From assembly GCF_947502065.1 (NCBI RefSeq), contig NZ_CANMYE010000014.1:140-64139 (forward strand): a stretch of 64,000 bases of DNA, read 5' to 3'. Positions 26,353 to 38,907 of the stretch are shown piece by piece; position 1 is the first letter of the stretch, and each line of letters starts with the position of its first letter. The translations under genes were made by a program, and so were the position numbers. The notes beneath the pieces were generated by a model. It saw only the letters and a list, made by a program, of their open reading frames with translations, was not told the DNA's origin and did not search any database. This DNA comes from an uncultured Pseudoteredinibacter sp. Its GTDB lineage: Bacteria; Pseudomonadota; Gammaproteobacteria; Pseudomonadales; Cellvibrionaceae.

Positions 26353-27594
26353 CTAGAATATACCCTTAGTGTCTATAACTACTTTTTCACTTAACAACCT
26401 GCGCTCTATAGAGAGGAACTCCTTATGATCTACTAACAGAACAATTATATTCGCTCGTTCCAATGCAGGGACTACTGGTAATAGCTCCAGTCCTTTTGAC
26501 GCTAGACTTTCAGGCAGGCTGGTAATATTCGGCTCTACCACCAAAACCTCACCAATTCCCATTTCAGAAACTTCTTCAACAATTCTCATAGACGGGCTTT
26601 CTCGAAGATCATCTATATCAGCTTTAAAGGTCAACCCAAGAAAAGCCAGCACTGGTTTTTTGTATTGATCTGCTGATTTTATAACTTTGTCAATAACATG
26701 ATACGGCTTTCGATCATTTACCTTTCTAGCCTGCTGAATCAACTTCGCTTCTTCAGGACAACTGCTTACTATGAACCAAGGATCAACGGCAATACAATGC
26801 CCTCCGACACCAGGACCAGGGCTCAATACATTCACCCTTGGGTGTCTATTTGATAGCCTTATTAACTCCCATACATTTATTTTCAATTTCTCGCAGATCA
26901 CCGACAACTCATTTGCGAAAGCTATATTCACATCCCGGAAAGCATTTTCCGTCAGTTTCGCCATTTCCGCAGTTCTTGATTTCGTAGTTATACATTCACC
27001 TTTAACGAAAATTTTATATAATTCCACCGCTTTACGGCTGCACTCAGCAGAAAGACCTCCAACCACACGATCATTGGTCACTAGTTCCTGGAGCACCGAA
27101 CCGGGCATAACCCTTTCTGGACAATGAGCAATTTTAATATCAGCTTCCTCCCCCTTATCAAGTGGAGTTGTTAGATCAGGCCTATATTCTTTTAACCAAC
27201 ACGCAACTTTCTCAGTAGTACCAACAGGAGAGGTGCTCTCTAGTATCACTAAATTTTCTTTGCTTAATGCTGGCGCTATAGACTTAATAGCTTCTTTAAT
27301 ATAACTGAGATCTGGTTCATTGTTCCCCACCTTAAATGGTGTCGGCACAGCAATTAAGAAAGCTTCCGCTGGCTCTGGCTCAGTTGTCGCTCTAAGCTTT
27401 CCTGTTGTTACGGCAGCCTTCACTACGATATCTAGATCCGGCTCGACTATATGCACCCCACCGCTATTAATTGTATTAACAGCTTCTGTACTGATATCAA
27501 CACCAATAACATTGACACCTCTAGATGCTAATATGGCTGCAGTAGGCAGCCCTATATAGCCCAGCCCAATAACGGATACGGTTTTAAAATTCAT
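26353..27594 (-). CDS. wecC: UDP-N-acetyl-D-mannosamine dehydrogenase
   Basis: [18 protein letters not shown] and [16 protein letters not shown]. Likely start is ATG 27594 (ATGA overlap with the wecB stop). Confidence 0.93.
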
Positions 27595-28730
27595 ATATTT
27601 ACTACTCGCTTTACACCTGGAGCTAATGATTCTGATATTCTGCTGCATGCCATGCCATCACCATAGGGATTGATAGCTTTAGCCATATCCTTGTAGCTTG
27701 AACGTGACTCGAAAAGCCCACTTACCGCATTAACTATTCTTTCAACACTCGTACCAACTAACCTAACTGTTCCTGCATCTACAGCCTCTGGCCTTTCAGT
27801 GTTTTCTCGCATTACTAAAACAGGCTTACCCAGAGATGGAGCCTCCTCTTGCACTCCGCCAGAGTCGGTCAAAATTAGATATGATTTATTCATTAGGTAT
27901 ACAAATGGGAGATAATCTAGAGAGTTGATTAAGTATACATTTTCCAAGTTATTTAAAAGTCGATTTACAGGCTCTTGCACATTTGGGTTTAAGTGAACTG
28001 GATAAACGATTTGGGCATCTGGATATTTATTTGCTATTTTTCTTATAGCTTCACATATCCTCTCAAAGCCACCACCAAAAGATTCTCTACGGTGGCCTGT
28101 TACGAGTATCATTTTCTTATTATCATCGAGAAATCCAAAGCATTTCGCCGCTGTTGCTCTGAGCTCTTCATCCTTATCCATTCGCGCTACTACCCACTGC
28201 AAAGCATCAATTACCGTGTTCCCAGTAATCCAAATATTCTCTTCAGGTATTCCTTCAGATAAGAGGTTTTGCTTTGACTTTTCCGTTGGGCAGAAATGAT
28301 AAGACGCTATCGCACCAGTCAGCTTTCTGTTCATTTCTTCTGGCCAGGGTGAGTATATATTTCCGGTACGTAAGCCTGCCTCAACGTGGCCAACTGGTAT
28401 TTGTTCATAGTAAGCTGCCAAACTCGCCGCGAAGGTTGTTGATGTATCACCGTGCACTAGTACAACATCTGGCTTGCTATCGCGTAGCACCTCTCTCATC
28501 CCTAGGAGAATTTTAGAGCTGATATCGTATAGATCTTGCCCCGGCGCCATGATATCTAAGTCATAGTCAGGTTTTAGTTCAAATAAACCCAACACTTGAT
28601 CCAACATTTCTCTATGCTGAGCTGTTACACACAACACACTTTCGAAATTCGGATTTTTTTCTAGAGAACGCACCAGTGGCGCCATCTTTATGGCCTCTGG
28701 ACGAGTGCCAAATACAGTTAGAATTTTCAT
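27591..28730 (-). CDS. wecB: UDP-N-acetylglucosamine 2-epimerase (non-hydrolysing)
   Basis: [43 protein letters not shown] and NPYGDG motifs. Confidence 0.96.
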
Positions 28731-28745
28731 TAAAGATCCCTCTAC

Positions 28746-30656
28746 TTAGTAGATATCCTTCGCAAAAAGCGTGAATGGCGTCTTAGCCAATATCTTCATA
28801 TCCAGCCACAGCGACCAGTTATTGATATAGGCCATATCAAACTCCACACGCTTTTCCATTTTATCCAGCGTTTCTGTTTCACCGCGGCAGCCGCTTACTT
28901 GGGCTAGGCCTGTGATGCCAGGCTTAATTCTGTGGCGCGCTAAATAGCGGTTTATTTTTTTGCTATAAAAGTGATTGTGCGCTACTGCGTGTGGGCGCGG
29001 GCCCACTAGGCTCATGCGGCCCTGCAATACATTTATTAGTTGGGGCAGCTCATCGATGGAAGTGCGGCGAATAAATTTACCTATGGGGGTTACTCTATCG
29101 TCGTTTTTGGTCGCTTGTTTTACTTCGCCGCCTGCCTCATCGTGTTGGCGCATGCTGCGGAACTTCCACACTTCAATAATGCTGCCATCCCAGCCGTGGC
29201 GCTGCTGCTTAAAAATTACTGGGCCTTTCGAGCTTAGTTTTACCAGTGCCGCTATGGTTAGCATGATGGGCGATAGCGCAATTAGGGCCAGTAATGCGAT
29301 GCTTCTATCCATTAAGTCTTTTAGCACGGTAGATAAGCGCGAGCTGGTTAGCGGGCTTTCGTTTAGTGATATCAGTGGTACGCCGCCCACTTCACGTACT
29401 GAGTGGTTTACTAGGTTTAGGGCAGAGATATCTGGTGCCCAGATGATGTCTACATTGGCATCCATTAGCTCGATGTTTAGTTTGCTTACTTGTTGGGATA
29501 GCAACATAGGCAGGGCTATGTAGATGCGTTTTATGCCGCAGGCTTCTACGATTTTTATTAGCGAGCTGATGTGGTTTATTTCTGTGTAGGCGGCCAGCTC
29601 TTCTAGTTTTTGTTTTTGGGCTTGGTTTTTGTTGTGGTTTACTACTAGGGATAGGCGGTTTGTGAATGAGGCTGGGGCCGCATTTTGATTAGTGGCTTCG
29701 ATTTTGGGGTCAGATCCCTTGGGATCTGACCCCGTGTGTGGCGTTGCTTCGCTCGCCTTGAACTCTGTGAAGGCGGGTTTGTTTAGGTAGGTGCTGCTTA
29801 GCTTGCCGATGATGGGGACGTTGGCTAGTTTGCGGTTTAGCTTTACGTTGAATAGGCGCTTGCGCTTTTGGGCGAAGACATCGAGTGTTTTTTCTTCGCC
29901 TAATTCTTGTGCGGCTGCGTATTCGCTTTCGGCTACGCTGGTTTGTAGCCCTGGCTGTAAATCCGGCTCGCCCTCTACTTTAATTGTAGCCACTACATTA
30001 TCGCGCACCCATGGGTTGCGGTTTAGGCTGTTTACTAATTGCTGGGCGATTGCTCCGCTACCGATAACTAATGTGGGTATAGAGTGGGAATGGTGAGCGC
30101 GATACATACGCGTTAAATAATGGAAGGCAAAGTAAGCAGCTATTTGGCCTGCCCATGCTGTTGCAAACCACACTAATAAAACTTCGCGCGAATAGGTGAC
30201 GCTGGTTTTGGTAATAAAACCCAGCACTGCCAACAAAGCGACTGTAGTAGCCCATGCAATACTAATGCGCAGCACACTATTAAAGTGCCCTGTCGATCGG
30301 CGGTGTATGCCTTGGCTGCTATATACAAAGGCAATGGCAAAGGCACTGAGCACCGCAAGCACACGATAGTCAGAGCTGATAGCACCCATCTTTATATAGG
30401 CAAGCGTGCAAAGGCTGGCAACTACCCAAGCGATATCGCAGGCCAGTTGTAAAAATGCCACTAGGTTTTGATTGTTTTTTAGCAGGCGCCGGCCTTGAGG
30501 CACATCTACCCCTGCCTGGGGCAATATTGCCTGCTGAATAGCTTCAGAATTTACGGCGGCGCCAAATGCCGGCTCGTTTAACCCTGCCTGCTGTATGTTG
30601 TTGTTTGCTATATGCTCGCCTGCCATATTGGCGGCGTGATTTCCCTGTGACTCCAT
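28746..30656 (-). CDS. wcaJ: Undecaprenyl-phosphate glucose phosphotransferase with a large internal insertion
   Basis: N-terminal TMs, LVIGSG, KFRSM, RRTSIDELPQL, MSLVGPRP and KPGITGLAQV. At 636 aa it carries an extra low-complexity segment containing a REP. Confidence 0.92.
   Translation of the reverse strand: MESQGNHAANMAGEHIANNNIQQAGLNEPAFGAAVNSEAIQQAILPQAGVDVPQGRRLLKNNQNLVAFLQLACDIAWVVASLCTLAYIKMGAISSDYRVLAVLSAFAIAFVYSSQGIHRRSTGHFNSVLRISIAWATTVALLAVLGFITKTSVTYSREVLLVWFATAWAGQIAAYFAFHYLTRMYRAHHSHSIPTLVIGSGAIAQQLVNSLNRNPWVRDNVVATIKVEGEPDLQPGLQTSVAESEYAAAQELGEEKTLDVFAQKRKRLFNVKLNRKLANVPIIGKLSSTYLNKPAFTEFKASEATPHTGSDPKGSDPKIEATNQNAAPASFTNRLSLVVNHNKNQAQKQKLEELAAYTEINHISSLIKIVEACGIKRIYIALPMLLSQQVSKLNIELMDANVDIIWAPDISALNLVNHSVREVGGVPLISLNESPLTSSRLSTVLKDLMDRSIALLALIALSPIMLTIAALVKLSSKGPVIFKQQRHGWDGSIIEVWKFRSMRQHDEAGGEVKQATKNDDRVTPIGKFIRRTSIDELPQLINVLQGRMSLVGPRPHAVAHNHFYSKKINRYLARHRIKPGITGLAQVSGCRGETETLDKMEKRVEFDMAYINNWSLWLDMKILAKTPFTLFAKDIY
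29706..29733 (+). repeat. REP palindrome, T-type, inside the wcaJ coding sequence
   Basis: GGCTTCGATTTT-GGGGTCAGATCCC-TT-GGGATCTGACCCC; translates in frame as (T)GSDPKGSDP(K). Confidence 0.95.
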
Positions 30657-31848
30657 GATCCGCTCCGAGCGTTGTCACATTCCTATTAATCCGTTACATC
30701 CTGGATTTATGTCAGCCGTCTGTGCAGCCTCTTACATCTATTTACTTCTACGCTTATAACCTACTGATCTTGCAATTGGCCGTTTTTATAAATGCTGGCA
30801 TATATAAAAACAGACAAAAAAATGCATCAAACATGAGCGCTAATCACCTTTAAGGCACTCTTGTTTATTTCATTGGTTTGGGGGCTTTATGTTTATCGAA
30901 GGCTTACTCTTATTCTTTCGCTAGAGCTAATAGCTTCGATTGATTGGAATAGTTGGTTGGCTTAGCGCGGCTTAATACCACTGTTTACCGCAGCGTTATG
31001 TCAGTAAATCACCGTCCCGGTGAACTTCATACCGACCGCCGCTTGTAAAGCCAACCCAGCAGTTTCTGGCCTCCCTTTAGCTCACTCTTTTTGGCGCGCT
31101 AATCTACCCTTTTAACTGCGAGAACACCCTATTTCCCTTGGCCTTTTCCAAACTCCGTCTTAGAAATCTCCCTGGTTCTTTATGTTGAACCTAATAAATT
31201 TGATCCCAAATACTTAGCTGGCAGAATCTTATCTTGCCACTATGTAATTTTTTTTACGGATTTAACTTTATTACTTTTTAACTATAAATCCTTAAGAATT
31301 GGCGAGCAGTCTAAGTAATTAAGTTGATGCGAGCAACATTATTAATGTGAGCTGAATCACGATTTTGTGGTTTTTGGTGTTTTAAGCGACAAAATGTCGA
31401 TAACTGGCTGGACAACTCGGTTTTTATAAGATTAAGGAATTTGCAGGCATTTTTATAATAACCAAAGGGATTTAATAAGGTTTGTATTTTTAGGAGTTAT
31501 ATAAACTTTAGAGCCAGAGTATTTGTCGTTTTTTCAGGGTTAGCTCGAAATAAGACTTTAAAACTAAACATTCCTATCAGTTAGCTTATACGACAGGCAC
31601 TTAAGTTTTGTCGCGTTAGTCGTTTTTTTAGGAAATTTTATTTACCTAAGTTCATTAGCTTTGTTAGAATTTTAAGTGGTCTTAGATTGCAGCGCCATTT
31701 GCGATTGTTAATGCTTCCTTAGAAGATGTACGGCTGACAGTACTAGAGGTATCCAAAGCACTTAAGCAACCTAGGCAACACGGCGCAAAACAGCATTGAA
31801 GCTGCAATGGAAGAAAAAGCGATTGAACGCATTCAAGGAGAAACCTCA

Positions 31849-32592
31849 ATGCCTAGTTTATTCAGAAAGGGCGTATCGCCCCTGCTGTTATCATTGCTAT
31901 TGCCTTTAATGGCCAATGCCGATGTAGCATCCGATTTATCCAATAATGTTCCTATTGCCGATGTACTGGCAAATGCTATTGCTGACGGCATGACTGCCGA
32001 AGAAGCCGTAGCCGTTATTGCGGCCAATGATGCCTCACAAGTAGCTGCCGCTGTAGCAGCGGCTGTAGCGGCTAACCCGGCGGCGGCTGTAAGCATTACC
32101 CAAGCGGCTATCGCTGCAGTGCCAGCCCAGGCGGCGGTGATTGCCTCAGCTGCAGTTAGTGCGGCGCCTAATAATGCACAAGCTATTACCAATGCAGCAG
32201 TAACCGCAGCACCTACCGCAGCTGAAGCGATTGTTGGCGCAGCGGTAACAGCGGCCCCACAAGTGGCAAATAATATTGTACAGGGTGCAACTCAAGCGCA
32301 ACCTGGCAACAACACTAACTTTGTTCAGGCCGCGATTGCTGCCAACCCAACGGTTGCAGGCCAAGTAACCGGTGCGACGGCGGCTGGTGGCCAGCAAGGT
32401 AATGCTGGTGACTCAGGTAATACTGGGAATACCGGTGATACCGGCAACACTGGTAATACGGGCAATACCGGAAATACCGGTAACGCAGGAACTGGTAATG
32501 CTGGAGCAGGCGGTGCTGGTGGCGCCGGTGGTTCTGGTGGTGCCGGCGGCGGTGGTGGCGGCGGCGGCGGCGGTGGTGCCAGCCCTGCCTAA
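31849..32592 (+). CDS. Secreted Ala-rich 15-aa-repeat / Gly-X-Y repeat protein
   Basis: AAGGAG RBS before ATG 31849, Sec signal ending ANA, seven 15-aa repeats, eleven Gly-X-Y triplets, poly-Gly tail, own terminator. Confidence 0.8.
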   Translation: MPSLFRKGVSPLLLSLLLPLMANADVASDLSNNVPIADVLANAIADGMTAEEAVAVIAANDASQVAAAVAAAVAANPAAAVSITQAAIAAVPAQAAVIASAAVSAAPNNAQAITNAAVTAAPTAAEAIVGAAVTAAPQVANNIVQGATQAQPGNNTNFVQAAIAANPTVAGQVTGATAAGGQQGNAGDSGNTGNTGDTGNTGNTGNTGNTGNAGTGNAGAGGAGGAGGSGGAGGGGGGGGGGGASPA

Positions 32593-34250: not shown

Positions 34251-35891
34251 TTAGTTCTTTTTGCTGCGGCCGAAGGCGGTTACTGCGCAGCGGTGTGAAA
34301 GTAGATCTACGGTGCGGATGTTATAGTCGCCGCCGCTGGCTTCTAGGGTGGTTACCATTTGGTGGCTATTGGACTCTTGTTCTACTTTGTAAATTTGCTC
34401 TTGATTTAGTGGGTAGCGTACTGGATCGCCTTCGGCCATGCCTACTAGCAGATCAGCTTCGCAGCGCACTTTTGCACGGGTGATATCTGGCTCGCCCTGT
34501 AATGCGAAGCGCATGGTTAGTTCGCAAGCTTTTACTTCTTTATCGTCGGTGCGTTGGCAGGCTAGTAGTTCTTTTTCTAGGGTTAGCAGAACGGGTTGGC
34601 CTGTTGGGTTTGATTGTCTTTTTCTTGTTGTAGCGCTGCTTGGTTTTGCTTGTTCGGGCTCAGCAAGGGAAGCATTGCCAGCCAGGCGATCTTTAAAGCT
34701 TGGTGTTGTGGACGTTGGCGGCTCGGTTTTTGCGCTTTGTTTTTGCATTGGGTGGTTGCTGACGAGGTTATCTGGGTTTTCTTCTGGCCATGGGGTTTTG
34801 TTAGCGGGCTGGTTGGGCCTCGCTGCTGTTTTTGTGCTTGCTGTTATTTGGGTGCCGGTATTAGGGTCAGAACCGATTGGGTTCTGACCCTGGGTTTGGG
34901 CTTCTGCTTTTGTGTTTGCTGCGGTTTGGGTGCCGGTATTAGGGTCAGAACCGATTGGGTTCTGACCCTGGGTTTGGGCTGCTGCTTTTGTGCTTGCTGC
35001 GGTTTGGGTGCCGGCATTAGGGTCAGAACCGATTGGGTTCTGACCCTGGGTTTGGGCTGCTGCTTTTGTGGTTGCTGCGGTTTGGATGCCGGTTTTAGGG
35101 TTAGAACCGTTTAGGTTATGACCCTGGGTGTTTGTTGGCTTGGTGGCGGATTTGGGGTCGGAACCCTTGGGGTTCTGACCCCGGATTGGTTGAGGTTTTA
35201 CCTTTGTTTTTGCTAGGGCGTTTATTGTGGCCCAGTCTTTTTTTAGGAAGTGGGCAGCTACCCAACCGTGTAGGCGTTTGCCATCGTTGTTTGGATCTAT
35301 GGTGGTTATTCTGGCCCAGCCGTTATCTTTGTTATACACCATTACTGGGTGCTCAAATGGTATGGCGCTTAGGCGGATGTGTTTGGTGCTGGGGCCGCTG
35401 CGCACTTTTAGCGATTTAGTTTTCACTTGATGTGGTACGCCTTCACCTATGGGGTGAGGCTGTACTAACGCGGTGAATTCTGCAGCGTTGGTTTTTTTAT
35501 TTCTTTTTGGGCGGTTCGATACTGGGTCTACTTTAATATAGCGTGATGACATCCAGCCAGTGCGTTGTTGTTTGCCCTTGGGTAGGTTTTTATTGATAAA
35601 ACTGACTTCTGTCCACTCTCCTTGTACGCGTAAGCGAGTGACTACATGGCCTTTATTTAGCTGGCTAATGCCGGGGTAATCAGAGCCTGGGCCTTGGCGA
35701 ACTTTGACGAAGTTGGCGGTGATTACGCCGTATTCGGCCGCTTGGGATTTTGGGGTTGTTATTGGGGTGGTTAGTAGGGTGACTAGGGTTAGTGCCAGTA
35801 GGTAGAGTGGGGTCAGACCCCGTGGGGGTCTGACCCCGGTGGTGGTGTTGGTGAAGCTGTTTTTAAACTGGCCTATTTTTGCTGCTGGCAT
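34251..35891 (-). CDS. Secreted protein with two bacterial SH3 domains, a REP-derived repeat linker and an unknown C-terminal domain
   Basis: Signal-like N-terminus; VKVRQGPG..W and LKVRSGPS..NGWA SH3b motifs; (T/A)QGQNPIGSDP repeats; Cys-containing C-terminal domain. Confidence 0.8.
   Translation of the reverse strand: MPAAKIGQFKNSFTNTTTGVRPPRGLTPLYLLALTLVTLLTTPITTPKSQAAEYGVITANFVKVRQGPGSDYPGISQLNKGHVVTRLRVQGEWTEVSFINKNLPKGKQQRTGWMSSRYIKVDPVSNRPKRNKKTNAAEFTALVQPHPIGEGVPHQVKTKSLKVRSGPSTKHIRLSAIPFEHPVMVYNKDNGWARITTIDPNNDGKRLHGWVAAHFLKKDWATINALAKTKVKPQPIRGQNPKGSDPKSATKPTNTQGHNLNGSNPKTGIQTAATTKAAAQTQGQNPIGSDPNAGTQTAASTKAAAQTQGQNPIGSDPNTGTQTAANTKAEAQTQGQNPIGSDPNTGTQITASTKTAARPNQPANKTPWPEENPDNLVSNHPMQKQSAKTEPPTSTTPSFKDRLAGNASLAEPEQAKPSSATTRKRQSNPTGQPVLLTLEKELLACQRTDDKEVKACELTMRFALQGEPDITRAKVRCEADLLVGMAEGDPVRYPLNQEQIYKVEQESNSHQMVTTLEASGGDYNIRTVDLLSHRCAVTAFGRSKKN
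34863..35182 (+). repeat. Five REP-derived palindromes inside the SH3 gene (34863-34891, 34941-34969, 35019-35047, degenerate 35097-35125, 35154-35182)
   Basis: AGGGTCAGAACC-GATTG-GGTTCTGACCCT at exact 78-bp spacing, then 57 bp to the last copy. Confidence 0.93.
35809..35837. repeat. REP palindrome within the SH3 protein N-terminal signal region
   Basis: GGGGTCAGACCCC-GTG-GGGGTCTGACCCC; reads GVRPPRGLTP on the minus strand. Confidence 0.88.
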
Positions 35892-37586: not shown

Positions 37587-37614
37587 GGGGTCAGATCCCG
37601 TGGGATCTGACCCC
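37587..37614 (+). repeat. REP palindrome, T-type
   Basis: GGGGTCAGATCCC-GT-GGGATCTGACCCC. Confidence 0.92.
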
Positions 37615-37712
37615 GGGTGTGGGCACGACGGTTGTGGCCTTGCTGTTTTCTATGGAGGAGCTGTGGATTCGTTTTAGTACTGGCTTTGAATTTTAGATCA
37701 CGGCTTCGACGT

Positions 37713-37740
37713 GGGGTCAGATCCCTTGGGATCTGACCCC
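37713..37740 (+). repeat. REP palindrome, T-type, 5 bp from the RAYT stop codon
   Basis: CGGCTTCGACGT-GGGGTCAGATCCC-TT-GGGATCTGACCCC. Confidence 0.93.
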
Positions 37741-37745
37741 GAGTG

Positions 37746-38327
37746 TTAGGTGGTTCGGATTGATTGGATTTGTTTGGGGTTTAACGCTTCTTGGAAGAGG
37801 TTTTGGTAGTTGGTTTGTTTTTGTTCTTTGGTATTTCCTAAAGAATCATATATGGAATGAGCTGTTGTAAGATTGTCACTTTTGCCAAATGCATTGCAGT
37901 TGTAGCTGGACCATTTGTATTGGCTAGGGTGGTTAACTAAGCCAGCTCGGACGGGGTTTAGCTCTACGTAACGATAAGCACACAACAGGTAACTATCGTG
38001 AGTAATTTGCTTTGAGCGGTAGCGGCCTTGCCAAAGTGTGCCACTGCGCTGGTATTTTTTGTTGTAGTAGTTGCTGTAGGCAATGCTTAGGGTTTGCATC
38101 ATTTTTGAGGGGGCGTTTGATTGCTCTGCTGTACAGAGTAGATGGATGTGATTACTCATGAACACCCAAACGTGGATGCTTACTTTGTAATGGCTGGACT
38201 TTGTTCTTAGTAGGCTTAGGTATTTTACGTGGTCTTGCTCGTCGTGGAAAACTTGTTGCCGATTGCAGCCGCGCTGGACGATATGGAGGGGAATGCCTGG
38301 GGTGGTTTGGCGGGGCTGTCTTGGCAT
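37746..38327 (-). mobile_element. REP-associated tyrosine transposase (RAYT, HUH/Y1 TnpA family)
   Basis: MPRQPR..PGIPLHIVQRG start, HUH motif SNHIHLL, LWQGRY, catalytic Tyr in RYVELNPVRAG, YKWSSY; flanked on both sides by palindromes. Confidence 0.92.
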
Positions 38328-38380: not shown

Positions 38381-38420
38381 GGGGTCAGATCCCTAGGGAT
38401 CTGACCCCGTTCTGACCCCG
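38381..38420 (+). repeat. REP palindrome, T-type, plus a duplicated right half-arm
   Basis: CTCGGCTTCGATAT-GGGGTCAGATCCC-TA-GGGATCTGACCCC, then GTTCTGACCCCG. Confidence 0.92.
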
Positions 38421-38428
38421 TTTTGGTT

Positions 38429-38575
38429 TTAGGTTTTGATTTCTGCTTTTTGTTTGGCTAGGCCATATTTTATGAAGGCGAAGTTAATGGTTTTGTAGGG
38501 GAAGATGGCTTTGCTTTTGTCTGAGCACTGAATGACGTGTAGTGGGATTATTTGGGGTCTTTGTTTGCTAGGCAT
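38429..38575 (-). pseudogene. Decayed 5' fragment of a second RAYT-like gene
   Basis: MPSKQRPQIIPLHVIQCSDKSKAIF aligns by eye with the RAYT start MPRQPRQTTPGIPLHIVQRGCNRQQVF; AAGAGAG precedes the ATG. Confidence 0.55.
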
Positions 38576-38699
38576 GGTGTTTTCTCTTTTTTTGAGGTTT
38601 GTTTTAGTTTGGTGATTTGTTTGATGGTAGGTATCAGCCAAGTGGGTGGTTTGTGATTTTGAGCTTGGGTAATTTGGTTTATGGCGTTGTGTTTTTGGT

Positions 38700-38907
38700 G
38701 GTGTTTTTGGTGTGGTTGTAGCTTTGGGATCTCGGCTTCGAGATGGGGTCAGATCCCGAGGGATCTGACCCCGGGTGTGTGGGTATTTGGGTTCTGCTTT
38801 TGTTGTTCTTTAAGGCGTTTTTTTTGGGTGGGTGTTTTTGGGGTGGTTGTAGCTTTGGGATCTTGGCTTCGATGTGGGGTCAGATCCCTTGGGATCTGAC
38901 CCCGGGT
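38700..38907 (+). repeat. Two 77-bp direct repeats (38700-38776, 38831-38907), each carrying a T-type REP (38745-38772, 38876-38903)
   Basis: GGTGTTTTTGG.GTGGTTGTAGCTTTGGGATCT.GGCTTCGA..TGGGGTCAGATCCC..GGGATCTGACCCCGGGT repeated at 131-bp offset. Confidence 0.92.

Follow-up and report, generated by a model that had tools for sequence, protein, structure and literature searches.

Rickettsia palindromic elements (RPEs), of which the RPE-1 elements are ~100-150 bp long, are to our knowledge restricted to Rickettsia and have no associated transposase; they were reportedly described by Ogata and coworkers in 2000. For repetitive extragenic palindromes (REPs), in-frame copies inside open reading frames (ORFs) were catalogued in other species by Di Nocera, De Gregorio and Rocco (2013, BMC Genomics 14:522, PMC3733652). 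Single units were found to encode ~8-10 amino acids and dimers 20-30 amino acids, the host genes are intact, and shorter homologues exist. The same study relates intragenic REPs to RPEs and stresses genes for DNA replication and repair. This paper describes a REP within wcaJ, the gene for a priming glycosyltransferase, in a 64-kb stretch of DNA (the window, 64,000 nucleotides of contig NZ_CANMYE010000014.1) from a marine, uncultured Pseudoteredinibacter sp. It is very likely that this REP, which belongs to a family linked to a REP-associated tyrosine transposase (RAYT), was inserted once into the gene of the priming enzyme and is read through as a tolerated loop.

The wcaJ gene (28746..30656, minus strand) is a continuous ORF coding for 636 amino acids, a large monotopic phosphoglycosyl transferase (PGT) of the WcaJ family. 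Within this ORF, positions 29706-29733 form a perfect inverted repeat, GGGGTCAGATCCC-TT-GGGATCTGACCCC, with a 2-nt loop between 13-nt arms that are 100% complementary. On the coding strand, the region reads ACG GGG TCA GAT CCC AAG GGA TCT GAC CCC AAA ATC GAA GCC ACT, corresponding to T308-GSDPKGSDPK-IEAT, where the palindrome itself is read as G309 to P317 (GSDPKGSDP). The flank motif of the REP unit, GGCTTCGA, is located at 29694-29701 on the plus strand, 4 nt left of the palindrome; it is common to six other copies in the window, and on the coding strand it contributes to I-E-A. By direct reading, one of the three frames of the 28-mer runs into a TGA codon (GGG GTC AGA TCC CAA GGG ATC TGA). 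The length of the protein, the perfect palindrome with its flank read in frame and the stop codon in a shifted frame had all been noted in an earlier sequence-only reading of the window and were recovered here. The unit in wcaJ is slightly diverged and consists of TTTGATTAGTGGCTTCGATTTT, the palindrome and GTGT. It is a single palindrome with no partner within 700 nt, and not the inverted doublet of a REPIN. The predicted tryptic peptides across the REP segment are ASEATPHTGSDPK and IEATNQNAAPASFTNR.

The palindrome in wcaJ is a member of a multi-copy family. With up to 3 mismatches allowed, the 28-mer occurs 10 times in the 64 kb (0.00 expected), and the 12-nt arm occurs 26 times (0.11 expected). 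About 16 palindromes of the family were identified in the window, six of which are located within ORFs, namely one in WcaJ and five in the ORF of an SH3-domain protein, and the other 10 in intergenic regions; the corresponding loci of relatives hold 11-12 copies in 16-19 kb. Alignment of the copies revealed a common unit of ~55-60 nt, composed of (T)TT(T/G)GGATCTCGGCTTCGA, 2-4 nt, the palindrome and G(G/T)GT, with the consensus flanks ..TCGGCTTCGA-NN(NN)-GGGG on one side and CCCC-G(G/T)GT on the other side.

The same family flanks a gene at 37746..38327 (minus strand), which codes for a RAYT-like Y1 transposase of 193 amino acids. The protein contains an HIH motif, AYRYVELNPVRAGLV and the motif YRYVELNP, and matches Pfam PF01797 (Y1_Tnp) with 60.5 bits; a comparison to PDB sequences gave no match. 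By palindrome search, two REP copies were located just 3' of the gene (37587-37614 and 37713-37740, together 37587..37740) and three 5' of it (38381, 38745 and 38876, spanning 38381..38903), with REPs 6 and 53 nt from the gene ends. This arrangement is conserved in two relatives, designated L035 and L037, and the link of a mobile palindrome to a RAYT-type family, as proposed from the sequence alone, was thereby substantiated. Of the features by which REPs are recognised, the wcaJ copy has the short GC-rich stem-loop palindrome and the matching REPs around a Y1/HUH transposase gene; it lacks an extragenic location, since it lies inside the WcaJ ORF, and the GTAG or CGTC tag at the stem base.

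An exact scan of metagenome contigs for the 28-mer identified one locus only, in an unrelated high-GC organism (L038:1435-1462, Ga0326726_10002767). Here, identical arms are present once, in an intergenic region, as GGGGTCAGATCCC-GC-GGGATCTGACCCC and without the GGCTTCGA flank. These arms reflect either convergence or a far wider distribution of the stem sequence. Because of the different organism, the intergenic location and the missing flank, the locus is uninformative on the REP family of the window. A concatenated REP-peptide query against an index of 5.8 billion proteins returned two candidates, neither of which scored, a short query of low complexity being unsuited to word search. A scan of the whole window at the Rfam gathering thresholds gave no matches.

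The part of the protein in which the REP lies is itself unusual. Relative to 116 ordinary homologues with a median length of 480 amino acids, WcaJ contains 115 extra residues in this region, divided into block 1 (residues 236-273; 29838..29951, minus strand) and block 2 (residues 285-361; 29574..29804, minus strand), the latter containing the REP. The blocks are separated by residues 274-284, NRKLANVPIIG (29805..29837, minus strand), a retained Rossmann strand of the CoA_binding_3 domain, which is a DUF (domain of unknown function); G284 of this stretch corresponds to a glycine that at least 90% of the homologues share. The sequence-only reading had assumed ~135 extra amino acids between VVATIK and INHISS. 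The presence of extra sequence held, but not its size: the alignment with relatives, which had been suggested for delimiting the insertion, gave two insertions around the retained strand with its near-invariant G284, and the insert itself is not derived from REPs. Among the 120 best-scoring homologues listed, only four clusters at 90% identity are long (P0001 with 636 amino acids, P0002 with 673, P0003 with 625 and P0004 with 543), and the remainder have ~480 amino acids. The insert core, VPIIGKLSxxYLxKxPF ... LxLVxN, is kept in all insert-bearing relatives.

The AlphaFold2 model, also suggested earlier for locating the loop, predicts two helices of moderate confidence for block 1, and a predicted local distance difference test (pLDDT) score of ~91 was obtained for the strand at residues 280-286. 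Residues 298-340, including the REP peptide, have a pLDDT of <50 and are predicted to be disordered between this strand and a helix at 339-354. The REP peptide is thus predicted to occupy a structurally tolerant position in a disordered loop. It was also considered that the whole insert might consist of decayed REPs; this was rejected, since relatives carry the insert without any REP. Between 29400 and 30100, no other palindrome and no similarity to the REP flanks beyond short repeats at chance level was found.

The REP was identified at one codon position and in frame in six sequences from independent assemblies, obtained from different samples and with different assemblers (NCBI, JGI, ENA, Logan). 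In addition to the window, these are L001, an uncultured Pseudoteredinibacter with 96% amino acid identity, L036, the closest relative with 98%, L035, L037 and L031. Four other relatives, L033, L039, L002 and L034, contain the clade-specific insert, and both palindrome and peptide are absent from them. A neighbour-joining tree built from 455 ungapped core columns groups the REP-bearing sequences in a single subclade within the insert-bearing clade. Since four relatives carry the insert without the palindrome, the REP entered a pre-existing insert, and the simplest history suggested by these sequences would be a single REP insertion into an already existing loop. On the codon alignment, a block of ~26 codons (T308 to ~R334; 29655..29735, minus strand) is confined to the REP-bearing subclade, the four relatives lacking it; its boundaries are approximate and the exact junction of the empty site cannot be defined, because the linker evolves fast.

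The reading frame across the REP has been kept. Indels adjacent to it are in frame (L035 lacks 8 codons, L001 has 1 codon more, and a contig of run X8 shows a gap of 6 nt), and the frame persists out to a synonymous divergence (dS) of ~1.2 between the window and L031. In the core, on either side of the REP, the ratio of nonsynonymous to synonymous divergence (dN/dS, Nei-Gojobori) lies at 0.02-0.05; it amounts to 0.10-0.31 when the insert is taken as a whole and to 0.17-0.93 within the REP block. The frame-keeping indels and these ratios imply that the insert region is coding but weakly constrained. In wcaJ, the marks of an intragenic insertion are found together: a frame without stop codon, an intact flanking gene and orthologues without the element. 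A coral metatranscriptome contig of 2294 nt crosses the site, covering 29302-30198, and together with the conservation of the frame it makes translation of the REP peptide very probable. No public run contained the exact sequence of the window (the top share of sampled words was 0.31), so that the read evidence comes from relatives which are ~93-99% identical. The proposals that the REP was exonised into an existing enzyme initiating exopolysaccharide synthesis, and that the frame was kept, are well supported by the REP-free orthologues, the single subclade, the six assemblies, the in-frame indels and an insert dN/dS of <1. An assembly artefact, or a matching peptide in orthologues lacking the REP, had been named as what would speak against exonisation; neither applies, as the element is no product of assembly and the REP-free orthologues lack the peptide as well.

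At the nucleotide level, the wcaJ copy has retained the appearance of a REP. Across the five close relatives (dS ~0.3-0.4), all 8 arm codons are free of synonymous differences, which affect 39% of comparable codons in the rest of the gene. L031 has just two changes in the arm codons, GAT->GAC and GGA->GGG; both are synonymous, and they are partners of one stem pair, which changed from T-A to C-G. The loop codon is the sole position of the peptide where the residue varies, with K (AAG) in the window, T (ACG) in L001, L (CTG or TTG) in L035, L036 and L037, and S (TCA) in L031. The loop AA of the window and TT of L036, its closest relative, are reverse complements, a difference which would fit a loop flip by template switching within the palindrome. 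A similar pattern was found at the intergenic REP at 37587-37614, for which orthologues were identified in L035 (position 934) and L037 (position 2524). Here, a paired stem change from T-A to A-T occurred in L037, two strains have the T-type element and the third has the A-type, and the loops are AC, AA and GT, of which AC and GT are reverse complements. The loop variants at both sites suggest, as far as the aligned sequences can tell, flipping of the hairpin loop.

This pattern might be understood as selection on the palindrome as a nucleic-acid element, serving either as an mRNA hairpin which adjusts translation or decay for the leading gene of the operon or as a DNA site for a RAYT or REP protein. 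The frozen synonymous sites of the arms, the compensated pair and the persistence of the palindrome across a dS of ~1.2 agree with this idea, as does the stability of the RNA hairpin, which has a 12-bp stem and, in its 88-nt context, folds at -35.9 kcal/mol (z = -5.9). We nevertheless consider a selected element of this kind unlikely. The intergenic orthologous REP shows a like arm conservation, paired changes and loop turnover, so that REP-specific homogenisation or template switching within the palindrome can explain the observations without a local function. A scan for terminators and promoters around the wcaJ REP called nothing. Because the arm and loop pattern is also present at 37587, it is a property of the REP family and not of the coding context, and a local regulatory function is ranked below tolerance combined with maintenance of the REP type. 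It is similarly doubtful that the palindrome is under active maintenance for a function as a DNA or RNA element, be it a RAYT/REP-protein site or a checkpoint of translation or decay, with loop flips giving rise to the K/T/L/S polymorphism between near-identical strains. If it were, REPs would, together with the copy-variable repeats of the SH3-domain protein described below, give rise to rapid variation of protein linkers at a polysaccharide locus of the cell surface.

Selection might instead act on GSDPxGSDPK as a protein motif, for example as a flexible linker or as a site of modification or interaction, with the DNA palindrome as a by-product. The peptide is invariant in the six sequences save for the loop residue, and GSDP-type peptides are also found in the SH3-domain protein. 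Matching nucleotides with a matching non-coding flank are, however, also encountered between genes and around the RAYT gene, a purely protein-level selection would free the synonymous sites which are found frozen, the region is predicted to be disordered with the highest dN/dS in the gene, and the outgroups function without the peptide; taken together, this makes a selected motif highly improbable. More improbable still is that the REP is an artefact of assembly or annotation, or that wcaJ is a pseudogene or split gene without read-through. Short-read assemblers do break at the repeat: contigs of a coral metagenome approach the REP on either side and end within it, where the word depth climbs to ~650, and L001 contains a frameshift in the N-terminal extension of the gene. 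Against this stand six assemblies from different samples and pipelines which agree on position and frame, REP-adjacent indels that are all multiples of 3, and the core dN/dS of 0.02-0.05 on either side of the REP.

Several observations count against a single insertion of a RAYT-linked REP that is read as protein. The RAYT-like ORF scores 76 bits against NCBIfam NF047646 (REP_Tyr_transpos), just below the cutoff of 80. The conserved GTAG or CGTC tag at the stem base, typical of the superfamilies in PMC3733652, was not found in the REP flanks, which have GGCTTCGA instead. The copy counts and the share of copies in ORFs apply to the 64-kb window. The probability of ~0.009 for the frozen arms, calculated with per-amino-acid backgrounds, was obtained in a post hoc test on 8 codons which assumes codon independence. 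L033 carries TCAGACCC at the homologous spot, for which the chance is ~0.01, and the REP insertion may therefore be older, with decay in some lineages; this test is also post hoc, and L039, the sister of L033, has two mismatches at the same spot. The case for translation of the peptide draws on frame conservation and on the metatranscriptome contig, which is strandless, and RNA libraries can contain DNA.

For the insertion of a RAYT-linked REP as the preferred explanation, the course of events would be the following. A REP unit of ~55-60 nt, composed of the ..GGCTTCGA flank, 2-4 nt, the 13+2+13 palindrome and G(G/T)GT, and belonging to the family around the local RAYT-type Y1 gene, would have entered the coding sequence for the priming glycosyltransferase a single time, in the ancestor of a Pseudoteredinibacter subclade, probably by transposition through the RAYT. 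The landing site would have been a fast-evolving, predicted disordered loop of the older clade-specific insertion in the CoA_binding_3/DUF domain. By occupying one of two stop-free frames, the REP would have added ~15-26 residues (..T-GSDPxGSDPK-IEAT..). The enzyme would have remained intact, with the REP segment read through as a tolerated loop and probably neutral for enzyme function. The wcaJ copy still behaves like a REP in its nucleotides, with frozen arms or paired changes, fast loop turnover and some loop changes that look like flips.

A second gene which appears from its sequence to contain translated REPs codes for an SH3_3-domain protein of 546 amino acids (34251..35891, minus strand) with five in-frame REP-like palindromes. 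Three of these lie in a tandem repeat of 78 bp (26 amino acids) at 34822-35129, with a unit read as ..QTQGQNPIGSDPNTGTQTAA... The REP peptides are RGQNPKGSDPK, three copies of GQNPIGSDPN and one more near the annotated N-terminus. The tandem unit is present four times in the window, twice in L035 (2673-4163) and once in L037 (4263-5492), and resembles a REP-based variable number tandem repeat inside a gene. In the window and in L035, the conserved C-terminal domain continues in frame; the L037 ORF diverges and ends early at 409 amino acids. At 35809-35836, a C-type REP (GGGGTCAGACCCC..) is located in codons 19-28 of the annotated ORF and is kept in three strains. It lies upstream of a signal-peptide-like stretch and may be part of the 5' untranslated region if translation starts further downstream.

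In its overall organization, WcaJ is a complete large monotopic PGT, with an N-terminal helix bundle (helices at residues 65-189), the DUF domain and the catalytic Bac_transf domain. The ORF matches NCBIfam TIGR03023 (WcaJ_sugtrans) in two stretches with 458.6 bits, above the curated cutoff of 410.75, Pfam PF02397 (Bac_transf) with 227 bits at residues 446-631, and PF13727 (CoA_binding_3) with 75 bits. The nearest solved relatives by sequence and fold are PglC and the large monotopic PGT WbaP, and the best Foldseek match of the AlphaFold2 model (mean pLDDT 76.6) is WbaP 8t53 with E = 1e-14. The gene is the first of a co-directional Wzx/Wzy-type polysaccharide cluster, which includes genes for a UDP-GlcNAc 2-epimerase, a UDP-sugar dehydrogenase, a Wzx-type flippase, GT4 glycosyltransferases and an AsnB-like amidotransferase; Wzy_C and ManC genes are located on the opposite side of wcaJ. 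Based on the profile matches and the cluster content, it is reasonable to name WcaJ the priming enzyme of this locus. Its true start codon is uncertain, since the first 56 residues are predicted to be disordered and are poorly conserved. In L001 (2850-3060, NZ_CANMSS010000007.1), wcaJ has a frameshift relative to the window within the first ~20 codons, in the N-terminal extension, and the start in the NCBI annotation differs from that of the window (P0121, MTTLGAEHG..).

Directly downstream of wcaJ, the gene content is fully different among strains with 94-98% identical WcaJ (26353-28730 in the window, compared to the regions starting at L035:9235, L036:3847 and L037:11963). WecB/WecC are encoded here in the window, NeuB and CMP-sugar genes are found in L036, and a UDP-sugar dehydrogenase and a GT2 glycosyltransferase in L037. 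The upstream side, with Wzy_C, SH3, ManC and RAYT genes, is conserved between strains, and wcaJ marks the stable border of an exchangeable polysaccharide cassette. An ORF for 261 amino acids without Pfam match (31807-32592, plus strand) lies between wcaJ and the Wzy gene, with a signal-like N-terminus, a long region rich in Ala, GNT(GNTGDT..) repeats and a poly-Gly tail; repeats of 9, 18 and 36 nt were detected by TRF at 32416-32580.

In comparison to known enzymes, WcaJ shares with the large monotopic PGTs of the WbaP/WcaJ type (PMC10942596) the order of a four-helix membrane bundle, the PF13727 DUF and the C-terminal Bac_transf catalytic domain. It differs from ordinary members in the two clade-specific DUF insertions (38 and 77 amino acids) and an N-terminal extension of ~40 amino acids, and its REP part is predicted to be disordered. 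For Salmonella enterica WbaP (PDB 8t53), it was shown that the DUF contributes to dimerisation and nucleotide sensing (PMC10942596), and a related PGT is activated by a response regulator, probably through promotion of the dimer. By analogy, the older clade-specific insert of WcaJ could matter functionally.

Like RPEs, the wcaJ REP is palindromic selfish DNA found in frame in a gene that is still functional, as RPEs are typically at tolerant positions such as surface loops. It does not belong to the RPE families of Rickettsia with their ~100-150 bp, being a palindrome of 28 nt plus flanks (unit ~55-60 nt) of unrelated sequence, beside a RAYT-like gene and in a gammaproteobacterial host. With REP/RAYT and REPIN systems (Nunvar et al. 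2010, PMC2817692; Bertels and Rainey 2011, PMC3116915), it has in common that multi-copy palindromes flank a single Y1 (IS200-like) transposase gene with HUH and Tyr motifs; the wcaJ copy differs from REPINs in being a singlet and intragenic, and its RAYT link is known from the gene neighbourhood. The likeness to the Rickettsia elements drawn in the sequence-only reading is fair, but REPs in ORFs, including RAYT-linked GTAG REPs, had already been catalogued in 2013 (PMC3733652), and no new class of biology is opened. As the sequences suggest, wcaJ provides a clean case, dated by phylogeny, of a REP with a RAYT link being read as protein, and its history is unusually clear from an older REP-free insert, a REP-bearing subclade and six independent sequences. 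The intragenic copy keeps evolving as a REP and not as coding sequence, which bears on how REP populations are maintained. Annotators may take from it that palindromes termed 'extragenic' can truly be part of a coding sequence, and that short-read assemblies can break at them within genes. The closest counterparts remain the intragenic REPs of PMC3733652, which are likewise short GC-rich palindromes, otherwise intergenic and RAYT-linked, found in ORFs. Compared to these, the wcaJ element belongs to another REP sequence family, with the GGCTTCGA flank in place of the GTAG/CGTC tag, and occurs in another host lineage, the Cellvibrionaceae, and in another host gene, that of a polysaccharide-priming PGT; further contributions are a dated history, evidence from synonymous sites and a compensatory pair, and the polymorphism of the loop codon.

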